In this document: positions 43,864-46,221 of the stretch, in pieces
Position numbering within the stretch: position 1 is the stretch's first letter
How the letters are laid out: each line of letters starts with the position of its first letter
Source: Bdellovibrionales bacterium
GTDB taxonomy: Bacteria > Bdellovibrionota > Bdellovibrionia > Bdellovibrionales > UBA1609
Assembly (NCBI GenBank): GCA_965199825.1
Contig: OZ241329.1
Span: 1,088,001 to 1,152,000 of the forward strand
Reading direction: 5' to 3'
DNA: 64,000 bases
Made by a program: the position numbers and the translations under genes
The notes under the pieces: generated by a model
Seen by the model: only the letters and a program-made list of their open reading frames with translations
Told to the model about the DNA's origin: nothing
Database searches by the model: none

Positions 43864-44532
43864 TTAGTATCGCCGCACATCCATCAGTTTACCGCATTGG
43901 TCGGCAAATCTTTGAGACTTAAGCCTGCTGCGCATCCCTCCGGGAATGACATAGTCGTTACTTTTCCAACTGACAGTGGTGGGATAAACCAAACTTCGTT
44001 TTTTTATTTCACCATTAACCGAGGGATAGAGGATACCCGCCTTAAACGTTGCGTGCTGAAATCCTAGATATTCAGTGAGTGCTTTGAAAAGATTAAATTG
44101 TTTTAAATCTTCACCTGAAAAATACCGAGAGCTAAAGATAAAAGATTTTTTAGGGTTGTGATAAAATTCAATCGCTACAACATCTGCCGGATGTAATTCC
44201 GGATCTCGATAAAATTCCTTAGCAAGATACAAAAAATCAAATTGAGCATTTTTTGTTTTCAAGTTTTCGCCCGTGACCCAATATCTACTAAGGGCATTGC
44301 CGTTTGAGTCTAATGTTCGAAAAGCAAAAATTTCTGAATCACCTTCGTCCTTGGACTTCTCTAAAATCCACTTGTCAAATTCGGTGAGCTCTTCGTTTTC
44401 TACAAGATGAATGCCGTCTGGCAATTTTTTAAATTGAAAGCCCGAAACTAAATTGGCAAAGGTCGAATCCACTTTTGCAGCTATTGCGTAGTTCGAAATT
44501 AAAAAGGCGCAAACCAAGAGGTAATTTTTCAT
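43864..44532 (-). CDS. Secreted hypothetical protein with C-terminal CxxLM tag
   Basis: Signal peptide ending YAIA; ends DQCGKLMDVRRY. Confidence 0.7.
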   Translation of the reverse strand: MKNYLLVCAFLISNYAIAAKVDSTFANLVSGFQFKKLPDGIHLVENEELTEFDKWILEKSKDEGDSEIFAFRTLDSNGNALSRYWVTGENLKTKNAQFDFLYLAKEFYRDPELHPADVVAIEFYHNPKKSFIFSSRYFSGEDLKQFNLFKALTEYLGFQHATFKAGILYPSVNGEIKKRSLVYPTTVSWKSNDYVIPGGMRSRLKSQRFADQCGKLMDVRRY

Positions 44533-44593: not shown

Positions 44594-45427
44594 TCAATTA
44601 GCAAACACAATGCCGATCCCCCGGTGATGGGCACGATGATGACCCGAGCACAACAAAGTGAGATTTTCGATTTCATTCGTCCCACCGAGCGATATCGGTT
44701 GGATGTGATGAATATCGAGGTGCCGTTGCTGATCACATCGCTCGCCATTTTTATTGATGTGTGTGCATCGACTCTGATGAATGTGATAAACCTGGCGTTT
44801 CAACAGCGCGGTCATATTGGGCGACTTCGTCGTTGGGCACGATTTTTTTAATGGATCGTGTTTGACCAAAAATTGATCGACAAGCTCGTTGATAAGATCT
44901 TCCACCGTTGCAGCTTTTTTAAATTTTTGGCTTAACAGATCTTGGGCTCTTTTAAATGACACATATTTTTGTTCAGCCATTGAAAATGTGATTTGAACTC
45001 GCTCAGTTTCGCCCACCACACAAAATCGTGTCCGCTCGGGTAAAGCTTTTTCAGGATGAGCTTTGGCTATTTCTTTTTCTAAACTGCGCTTTGTTCCCTT
45101 CGCCTTATCAAACCAGTGTTGAGCATTCTCTTTTGTTAATATGCCGCTGATCCTGTTTGCTTTTGAAATTGAAATTTCGCCTGATGCGATTTGAGTTTTA
45201 AGTGCAGGAATCTCGATAAATTTTTTGGCAAGTTTATTAAAGATGCTCGCAAGCTCTTCAGATAAATGGAGCTGCTGGGTTGAGTATTCAAAAAGGGAAC
45301 GACATCCAAATTGATAATAGGTTTTATTGCGCCACACCTGCTCTAAAGCATTGAGCAAAAGCAATTCGGATTTGCGGTGATTTTCAGCCGCAACTACAGC
45401 GTTACGATGAACATTTAAATGATCCAT
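44594..45427 (-). CDS. HNH endonuclease with a long helical N-terminal domain (DUF222-like)
   Basis: RCTH...RCD...LDIHHIQPISLGGTNEIENLTLLCSGHH. Start moved to ATG 45427 (AGGAG RBS); 277 aa. Confidence 0.9.
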   Translation of the reverse strand: MDHLNVHRNAVVAAENHRKSELLLLNALEQVWRNKTYYQFGCRSLFEYSTQQLHLSEELASIFNKLAKKFIEIPALKTQIASGEISISKANRISGILTKENAQHWFDKAKGTKRSLEKEIAKAHPEKALPERTRFCVVGETERVQITFSMAEQKYVSFKRAQDLLSQKFKKAATVEDLINELVDQFLVKHDPLKKSCPTTKSPNMTALLKRQVYHIHQSRCTHINKNGERCDQQRHLDIHHIQPISLGGTNEIENLTLLCSGHHRAHHRGIGIVFAN

Positions 45428-45450
45428 AAATATCTCCTGTTTAGGAGAAG

Positions 45451-45459
45451 AGTGTAGCA
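45451..45459 (-). promoter_or_regulatory. Extended -10 promoter of the HNH gene
   Basis: Minus strand TG-C-TACACT, ~25 nt upstream of the ATG. Confidence 0.5.
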
Positions 45460-45648
45460 CGGGTTTTTTACCAATGGTTTTGATGTGCTCCGAGATGATT
45501 TTTTAGACTCTGTTTTTGTTGTTATTTTTGGTCACAGAGGTGCGCCTCATCGACGATTATTAAAAACACATTCGATTGATCGAATTTTTTCGATACAGAG
45601 CACTCTGGTGCATCAAAAACTGCGTCAATCTATTTCGAGAAAATCAAT

Positions 45649-45886
45649 GTGGGCACGATAATTTTGAATCTAACCAAAACTCCGGAGGTGTTCGGTTTTT
45701 GTTTAGATTAAAACACTGGGCATGAGAAAATTTAATTCTCAGCGGGCACGACAATCCTCAACCCGATTTGACAAGCGGGCACGATCATTCGTGAACTGTT
45801 TTAACCAGCGGGCACGACAATCGACACCGCCAATCGCTACTCAAACGGCCCCAATCTACCTTCGTTCATCCCGGCGGGCACGACAG
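45649..45886 (+). repeat. Short-repeat array (GC)GGGCACGA with unique spacers
   Basis: GGGCAYGA starts at 45651, 45718, 45744, 45777, 45810 and 45876. The last four are 33, 33 and 66 bp apart. CAGCGGGCACGACAATC is identical at 45740 and 45806. Confidence 0.85.
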
Positions 45887-45995
45887 AAAAACTGTCTCAA
45901 AACAAGACACTTCTCCTCGAGCCGCAATGTGCGCGAGCCTGTCTACAAATTGGTCATCGTCAGGAGCCAAATAGACCTACACCGCCGTTTCGCTT

Positions 45996-46035: not shown

Positions 46036-46221
46036 ATGAAACGATTATTAATTTTGGTTCTGCTTGCTTCTGCCCAAACCGCGATGGCTTGTCCTTATGA
46101 AGCTGTTGTTAAAGCTCTCAATTCAAAGTCCGCAGATGAAAGATCTCGCGCCTCGCAGATTTTAATGGCCGTGCAATACTCGCAAAGCCATCCTTCAACT
46201 TCATCAAATTCTAGTCGTTAG
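46036..46221 (+). CDS. Small secreted peptide
   Basis: Strong RBS; signal peptide MKRLLILVLLASAQTAMA; 61 aa. Confidence 0.7.
   Translation: MKRLLILVLLASAQTAMACPYEAVVKALNSKSADERSRASQILMAVQYSQSHPSTSSNSSR

Follow-up and report, generated by a model that had tools for sequence, protein, structure and literature searches.

A dispersed single-gene HNH element and its short cognate site in a Bdellovibrionales genome

The locus and its neighbourhood

The DNA considered here is a 64-kb window (the whole stretch of 64,000 nucleotides that was analysed) from a 2.84-Mb, 100%-complete, Bdellovibrio-like genome, in which a Tad pilus cluster, an RHS gene and a hit-like gene are arranged as in Bdellovibrio, the Bdellovibrio counterparts of these neighbours presumably being those named Bd0108/Bd0109. 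Within this neighbourhood lies a gene for an HNH protein, which the first-pass annotation had already pointed out and which proves to be a genuine open reading frame with a match to PF01844, its likely start codon being the ATG at 45427 (277 aa). The features of the locus, in window coordinates, are as follows.

43864..44532, minus strand: single-copy 222-aa ORF with a signal-peptide-like start, between the hit-like gene and the HNH gene
44594..45427, minus strand: gene for the 277-aa protein (PF01844; AlphaFold pLDDT 87.5), one of 27 paralogues
44615..45660, minus strand: putative copied unit of ~1.04 kb, its ends placed by analogy with close paralogue pairs
44629..44636, minus strand: cognate site in the last conserved codons (HHRAHH), the right unit end, in 25/27 copies
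44835..44842, minus strand: cognate site in the RHH-HNH linker (KKSCP), a linker site being present in 25/27 copies
45433..45459, minus strand: RBS (45433-38) and extended -10-like TGnTACACT (45451-59), conserved across paralogues and recognised by consensus resemblance only
45460..45628, minus strand: fixed-length leader from a conserved TTGAC (45624-45628), ~200 nt before the ATG
45651..45658, minus strand: cognate site nearest TTGAC, the left unit end; homology of close pairs stops at or just past it
45663..45713, no strand assigned: hairpin (inverted repeat I5) with the accessory motif ACACCKYCGGA, which recurs near site clusters
45718..45883, minus strand: 33-bp-period array of one degenerate and four full sites, its spacers decayed and locus-specific
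45857..45867, minus strand: dispersed genome-specific motif GAACGAAGGTA, within the array's 66-bp interval (61 genomic copies)
46036..46221, plus strand: single-copy ORF with a signal-peptide-like start, flanking the element

The two element-flanking ORFs (43864-44532 and 46036-46221) gave no Pfam match and were not found in 14 syntenic intervals of relatives. Six GGGCAYGA repeats had been reported upstream of the HNH gene, and all six were located within the window (45651, 45718, 45744, 45777, 45810 and 45876). The 33/33/66 spacing claimed for the last four is reproduced by GCGGGCACGA at 45742, 45775, 45808 and 45874. Its copy number lies beyond chance, with four in the window against 0.08 expected and none of 100 shuffles reaching four. 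The hairpins listed at first reading are likewise present in the sequence, the one at 45596-607 with a loop of a mere 2 nt. Two further copies of the motif, overlooked at that stage, lie inside the HNH gene (44629 and 44835).

Assembly artefact was considered as the origin of the array and rejected, since Logan contigs match it, in a check that covers the 33-bp array as distinct from the stand-alone minisatellites described below. The array is reproduced with 0 differences in two runs of the same study (one of them possibly the source sample), and run data from another study contain the 3' junction of the gene (9 differences in 650 nt) and a partial array at 45668-45819 (4 differences in 152 nt). 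Five joints among the Logan contigs have short sides and are probably paralogue-derived.

One of 27 copies of a single-gene element

The gene belongs to a 1-kb, single-gene element of which the genome has 27 copies at dispersed positions, this locus included. Searching the genome with tblastn returns 28 matches to the HNH gene, 27 of which run from the N-terminus while one is a remnant, at 42-65% identity; three of the 27 are broken, and the HNH motif is intact in 23. A quick tree, from which proteins under 255-260 aa were left out, groups the 24 full-length copies in a single clade (SH-aLRT 100), and dN/dS values of 0.08-0.13 across seven paralogue pairs denote purifying selection. Insertion contexts are unrelated (3 related pairs among 54 flanking ORFs) and, at the level of the gene, the element is absent from the syntenic interval in 14/14 relatives; Logan contigs showed neither an empty site at nucleotide resolution nor a circle or skipped form. 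The GC-skew minimum, at about 972 kb, probably marks the origin, and 20 of the 27 copies are in the chromosome half closest to it, with no strand bias (15/27 leading).

The extent of the unit is apparent from paralogue pairs at 87-96% nucleotide identity, in which the shared DNA runs from -220/-260 to +804/+812 relative to the ATG (+852 in one pair), that is, from the site before TTGAC to just past the site in the HHRAHH codons, or ~1.04 kb. The longest direct match between the unit ends was the site in 9/9 copies examined, and terminal inverted repeats were found in none of these nine. The copy at 44615..45660 has no close partner and its ends rest on analogy; since close paralogues share the ~1.04 kb from site to site, the 33-bp array would, by the same analogy, lie outside the copied unit.

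In 25/27 copies TTGAC is found 198-204 nt upstream of the ATG, followed by the extended -10 and the RBS. The leader has a median identity of 39% between copies and no fold or reading frame shared across the 27-copy family. As an ORF it was rejected, being open in at most 3/25 copies in any frame, and a covarying stem in the 200-nt leader was rejected as well, stems drawn from a copy's own sequence scoring no better than cross-sequence ones (p = 0.43). Two copies (G000:C1 799113 and 805045) and the remnant at 1029842 have in common a strongly folding REP-like hairpin upstream (z -5.5, -3.1), and two of these three have TTGAC at 122 nt, not 200.

Predicted architecture of the protein

The AlphaFold model (pLDDT 87.5, pTM 0.49) predicts a ParB/KorB-like HTH domain (residues 16-125), an RHH domain (144-198), a linker and an HNH domain (205-277). 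Residues 16-125 resemble KorB (VIA-align Z 7.3, rmsd 3.1, 96 residues), ParB-parS (6.9) and Spo0J (6.5), the N-domain scoring Z 6.3-7.3 against the DNA-binding domains of these proteins, and residues 144-198 resemble the small RHH proteins MazE6 (Z 4.8) and TraM (4.5); a Z under 8 is merely suggestive of a fold and may reflect a common arrangement. Residues 205-277 resemble the HNH domains of IscB (Z 8.8, rmsd 1.8, 64 residues) and McrA (8.0). Pfam gives a weak ParG match in the 277-aa protein, and Foldseek found nothing in the PDB at E<=0.001; a model of the N-domain built from the single sequence was of low quality (pLDDT 63.8) and was left out of the fold search. The family comprises 1,785 clusters at E<=1e-30, and its ESM Atlas neighbours are mostly from Bdellovibrionota.

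The cognate site and its minisatellites

The site GGGCACGA, which reads TCGTGCCC on the gene strand and has the extended consensus ~YTRTCGTGCCCRC, occurs 522 times in the genome. It is present upstream of 27/27 HNH copies, and 147/148 of these upstream sites share one orientation, with TCGTGCCC on the gene strand. The 522 copies resolve into 47 clusters and 66 singletons, the singletons being near background (43.5 expected) and at least 430 copies being clustered. Throughout this genome the sites are half-sites arranged head to tail, and the full palindrome occurs 0 times. Runs of at least four sites number 18 and are mostly near-perfect minisatellites with 16-25-nt units, up to 34 units long; six lie upstream of HNH genes, three upstream of a Y1 gene, and nine stand alone. 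Tandem pairs of sites number 260 here, whereas none of 383 other genomes of the order has more than 3, a comparison in which fragmented assemblies could conceal arrays. The periods from site to site vary from 16 to 42 nt and a 10.5-bp period is absent among 65 such spacings (p about 0.15-0.9), so that the helical phasing at first read into the array (33 bp as about three turns) finds no support.

Other short motifs accompany the clusters. GAACGAAGGTA has 61 copies here, whereas no more than 6 were found in any of 108 family genomes, and it faces 6/18 minisatellites within 40 nt, compared with 0.34% per random flank, and never points away from one. The same motif at window positions 45857-45867, also written GYGAACGAWGGTW, recurs at 60 other places and is dispersed, unpolarised and genome-specific, is both genic and intergenic, and often abuts minisatellites; 53 copies lie outside clusters where 0.5 are expected, and this dispersed motif is likely the site of a host protein. 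The accessory motif ACACCKYCGGA has 13 of its 18 genomic copies near site clusters. It is often hairpin-borne (window 45680-45692; G000:C1 246440, 565251, 1202961, 1576058 and others), and variants of it occur near Y1 genes. A second HNH family that might own the accessory motifs was not found in this genome, and one mis-specified pattern for the GTCCCGGGAC group was left out of the results. The small contigs C3 and C4 of this assembly (G000) consist of tandem repeats with ~3.4-kb and 2.1-kb periods and hold zero sites; they are possibly foreign to the genome.

Spacers, folding and the question of guide RNAs

The first-pass annotation had offered, as one reading, an array of non-coding or guide RNAs serving the HNH protein. 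The spacers do not support such a role and look instead like decayed tandem duplicates: two 23-nt spacers agree without gaps at 12/23 positions, and identity is 0.72 within a locus against 0.49 across loci, among similar-length spacers that made up 20 pairs from 4 loci, 16 of the pairs from one locus. In the proposed comparison with self and phage, the only matches at other places in the genome were at chance level or due to two accessory motifs, and there were none in 50,697 phage records. The interval 45460-45910 has a folding z of -3.3 when read as the minus strand, against -1.7 for the plus strand, and this locus is among 4/27 copies that fold at z under -2; the 200 nt upstream of TTGAC in the 27 copies have a mean z of -0.29, against -0.37 for random genome. 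The covariation check suggested for the paralogues' upstream regions turned up no conserved structure, alifold giving no consensus on either strand, and Rfam returned nothing relevant in the genome (one weak snoRNA match lies elsewhere).

That transcription of the array supplies the HNH protein with guide or scaffold RNAs, in the manner of HEARO/OMEGA or TIGR systems, is on this evidence barely probable, the least so of the explanations weighed here. It would account for a locus that folds better than shuffles (z -3.3), for the regular 33-nt period and for IscB as the best fold match of the HNH domain (Z 8.8, 64 residues), but the array is not carried between close paralogues, which lack a common fixed-period array or fold; periods elsewhere range over 16-42 nt with many spacers identical copies; the motif also lies within coding sequence on both strands; upstream regions fold like random genome and have neither a consensus structure, an Rfam family nor spacer matches; and Pfam finds no RuvC or RRXRR in 25 members. 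Two of the outcomes that the first-pass annotation had named as refuting are in fact seen, namely spacers that are decayed tandem duplicates (on 4 loci) and paralogues with no fixed-period array in common. The array consists of tandem repeats, now decayed, of a short DNA site by which each of the 27 element copies is marked.

Sites within the coding sequence

Nearly every copy of the gene holds the site two or three times, and the synonymous codons there are frozen. At the HHRAHH site R265 is CGT in 24/24 copies and A266 is GCC in 96%, and of 58 degenerate conserved codons the three least variable are site codons (1.00, 0.96 and 0.91; median 0.5); therefore the constraint acts on the DNA. The linker site is in the sense orientation at codon 196 in 14 copies and antisense at codon 202 in 11, the orientation being opposite between two subfamilies, and a third in-gene site lies antisense near codon 132 in 19/27 copies. 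The flanks of upstream sites resemble the linker flanks of their own gene (p = 0.001; the copies are not independent).

The same pattern with other sites in relatives

Matches to the family occur in 20/40 relatives, seven of which have 17-39 matches (these are matches, not copy numbers), and genome-specific expansions of HNH genes recur across the tree. At 22/112 loci, in 11/37 genomes, a palindrome within the gene recurs in the flanks of the same locus, compared with 89/11,856 pairs (0.75%) when palindromes are sought across genomes, counts in which kin are not independent. These palindromes are GC-rich, 14-16 bp long and located in the 3' half of the gene, their commonest centre being CCCGGG. 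The remaining 90/112 loci have no recurring palindrome, and many copies in G036, G015, G034 and G322 terminate at the stop codon without a site, so that site-bounded ends are not universal. TTGAC lies 150-260 nt upstream in 49/63 relative loci and, on the sequences compared, its placement at ~200 nt is a more general trait than the recurring palindrome. In G036 (L002, L014, L017, L019 and L021) and G015 (L038 and L042-L044) REP-like repeats abut the stop codon or sit upstream.

Individual genomes illustrate the pattern. G254 has 63 copies of the palindrome CTGTCGYRCGACAG, which lies in the linker and is repeated on both sides of the elements, and homology between its element copies ends at CTGTCGYRCGACAG. 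In the complete genome G297, which has 3 elements, 9/9 perfect copies of TCTGCCCGGGCAGA are at these elements; one copy falls within the codons for the C-terminus, and tandem modules of roughly 100 nt are present. The G010 site, TTGTGCCCGGGCACAA, approximates the full palindrome of the source genome's half-site, a palindrome absent from the source genome itself. Sites track protein clades and differ between elements inside single genomes (G276 and G330). The first-pass alternative of binding sites belonging to a selfish element thus stands in outline, on the 27 copies, the sites at unit ends and the covariation of site with subfamily in relatives.

Domestication of these genes as host nucleases, for defence or the digestion of prey DNA and with the motif bound by a host regulator, is a very improbable reading. 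A dN/dS of about 0.1, intact active sites and the lack of any match to the family protein in phage or plasmid collections would suit it, but the expansions are genome-specific and recur across the tree, sites differ among elements of one genome, insertion contexts are unrelated, and PADLOC matches are limited to the HNH domain.

Matches between linker and upstream sequence at p<=0.05 were found in 16/63 loci, against 5/63 for a control segment, and reach 29-43 nt including flanks at L256, L257 and L022; that they extend past the palindrome, to as much as 43 nt, points to physical copying. This bears on the possibility that the sites are operators only, through which the protein would repress its own toxic nuclease gene by looping between upstream and in-gene sites, with extra sites titrating it, arrays growing by ordinary slippage and gene copies spreading by host recombination between sites, without element-made nicks. 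Such an arrangement is unlikely, if a serious contender: it is in keeping with two predicted DNA-binding domains, with sites on either side of a promoter-like leader and again inside the gene, where their codons are frozen, and with purifying selection, whereas the length of the linker-upstream matches, the likeness of upstream flanks to a gene's own linker flanks (with the dependence among copies noted above), the lack of helical phasing and the 9/18 minisatellites away from any element gene all argue against it.

Wider scans were negative. A metagenome scan for related loci found nothing; a triple-motif scan of genome contigs gave at least 119 stretches, mostly from GC-rich taxa, with the family protein found in none, adjoining DNA being covered for 80 of them; and the same scan of viral contigs gave 51 stretches, none encoding the HNH family protein.

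Y1 transposase genes

A second multi-copy family in this genome consists of 17 genes for Y1/HUH transposase-like proteins of 142-217 aa (for example at 247156, 423196, 853295 and 1598553; L346-L348), 14 of which carry a related upstream repeat, TGACANTGCCC (..TGCCC); 41/49 copies of this related motif lie beside those 14, and one Y1 gene has TCGTGCCC minisatellites upstream. These arrangements allow that a shared or host process is possible. Upstream of each of the 14 genes, AAATGACANTGCCCC is repeated 1-6 times in a set orientation, the tandem spacers between being decayed, and AAATGACANTGCCCC is nearly confined to this genome, with 32 copies where none of 108 family genomes has more than 2. 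In G297 the Y1 loci L360 and L364 have a thrice-repeated motif of their own, GATACCTTTT, and L357 is without it. A six-copy family with a zinc-ribbon-like N-terminus (G000:C1 1289496, 1920376, 2082812, 2255210 and two more) we take to be probably an insertion-sequence transposase.

A real, though decidedly improbable, rival is that the HNH element cannot move by itself and is mobilised in trans by Y1/HUH transposases, as ISC is by TnpA, with the repeats as Y1 substrates and TTGAC as the Y1 cleavage or target word. The ISC precedent (PMC4810608), the ..TGCCC repeat upstream of 14 of the 17 genes, the TCGTGCCC arrays upstream of one, and Y1 genes in 5/5 relatives tested speak for it. Against it, the local HNH palindrome was found at 0/29 Y1 loci in five relatives, the site follows the HNH subfamily inside a genome, homology extends about 20-40 nt past TTGAC, and no common terminal hairpin was found.

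Comparison with known systems

Among known systems the HNH element would, by analogy, work most like a RAYT-REP pair equipped with an HNH enzyme. In RAYT-REP/BIME systems a nuclease-type gene is flanked by coevolving cognate repeats that also form modular arrays elsewhere, as described by Nunvar et al. (2010; PMC2817692) and in PMC6006769, the latter also recording REP insertions inside the gene in RAYT subclass 2.4; RAYTs are typically single-copy (PMC5581495). The likeness is that of an HNH gene flanked by abundant cognate repeats that coevolve with it. The differences are an HNH protein with predicted HTH and RHH parts in place of HUH/Y1 (the Y1 genes of this genome being separate loci), the 27 gene copies, and head-to-tail half-sites that cannot form a hairpin, where RAYT genes have palindromic repeats around them in inverted orientation; the sites of relatives are palindromic.

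REP13E12/DUF222-HNH elements are dispersed, multi-copy, one-gene elements whose product has a helical N-domain and a C-terminal HNH; to our knowledge they have no known transposase, and the mechanism of their spread has long been missing. These repeated elements of Mycobacterium (PMC10589994) resemble the present one in being dispersed, in having many copies and in encoding a protein with HNH at its C-terminus. Among the ESM Atlas neighbours of the HNH family, one cluster has DUF222 on 14% of its members, DUF222 (PF02720) has no match over the cut-off in this genome, and for the Mycobacterium elements neither a cognate site nor site-bounded ends or arrays were found reported in the literature covered.

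The ISC/IscB/HEARO (OMEGA) group comprises multi-copy HNH-encoding elements without a transposase of their own (PMC4810608, PMC9755519), in which respect, and in the HNH fold, the present element is similar. It differs in having no RuvC, the 277 aa being filled by HTH-, RHH- and HNH-like parts; in matching NF040563 at 29.8 bits against a cut-off of 175, and over the HNH stretch alone; in lacking the arginine-rich RRXRR/PLMP N-terminus (Pfam, 25 members); and in having no conserved structured upstream RNA (Rfam, alifold, mean folding z near 0). ISC and IS200-IS605 are marked by terminal hairpins shared with Y1-encoding elements and by a 4-bp target without duplication, and no IS605-like ends were found on the HNH element.

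TIGR arrays have two alternating 8-12-nt repeats, about 9-nt spacers and 36-nt units, and TasH carries its HNH at the N-terminus (both PMC12045711), whereas here there is one repeat type with irregular 16-42-nt periods and the HNH is C-terminal. For the Nop domain of TIGR-Tas there is no PF01798 match in the genome and no Nop fold among the matches listed, Tas Nop domains being divergent. CRISPR-Cas systems are marked by cas genes and by constant 25-36-nt repeats with unique spacers; here the repeat is 10-13 nt and spacers are often identical copies, and a genome-wide search for Cas1 found none, in agreement with the initial statement that no cas genes are present.

The predicted N-domain shares a helical DNA-binding fold with ParB-parS, Noc-NBS and KorB, and the 14-16-bp palindromes of relatives are often centred on CCCGGG, like NBS (centre CCCGGG; parS and NBS sequences in PMC7383237). 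Unlike those proteins, the 277-aa protein has no CTPase domain and is fused to a nuclease, and its sites belong to a mobile unit rather than to a centromere. A free-standing HNH homing endonuclease sits at a single allelic site, and its insertion destroys the target. The present gene resembles such genes in that it would be selfish and would spread through copying induced by a nick or break, and differs in occupying 27 unrelated loci and keeping many intact sites. For the HNH element and its sites no published description was found in the literature covered, subscription papers and supplements lying outside that coverage.

A possible mechanism

The reading favoured here, at somewhat better than even confidence and from sequence comparison, is that of a selfish element whose nuclease binds and nicks its cognate site, spreads itself and leaves tandem duplications behind. 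The HTH-RHH-HNH protein would bind the cognate site through its predicted ParB-like domain and would nick beside it rather than cut both strands, and repair or re-replication from the nick would copy segments from site to site. The copied segments could be whole elements, modules of 100-330 nt in relatives, or units of 16-42 nt here; long copies would give rise to new elements and short copies to units of motif plus flank, which slippage may amplify and mutation erode into arrays like the 33-bp array. Clustered sites might also help to keep the nuclease gene repressed. Two points sit less easily with a nicking element of this kind: the many intact targets inside the nuclease's own gene demand an unexplained safeguard, and strong purifying selection fits a host-useful gene too.

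A broader proposal is tentative and held at well under even confidence, namely that these elements, widespread in Bdellovibrionota, may represent a class of bacterial mobile DNA new to science, whose compact HTH-RHH-HNH protein would be the sole mobilising enzyme, nicking its own in-gene 13-16-bp site, copying site-bounded DNA with neither transposase nor integrase, seeding minisatellites and REP-like modules, and diversifying into many orthogonal protein-site pairs.

Implications

If nuclease-driven copying is true, the array and its gene would belong to a transposase-free mobile element and not to an RNA-guided system. For multi-copy HNH genes that lack a transposase, the family offers a candidate for the site acting in cis, defined ends of the element and a large natural set of protein-site pairs. 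With at least 430 of the 522 site copies clustered, it also offers a sequence-specific origin for bacterial minisatellites, and it may possibly provide a set of site-specific nickases of under 300 aa with differing 13-16-bp specificities.
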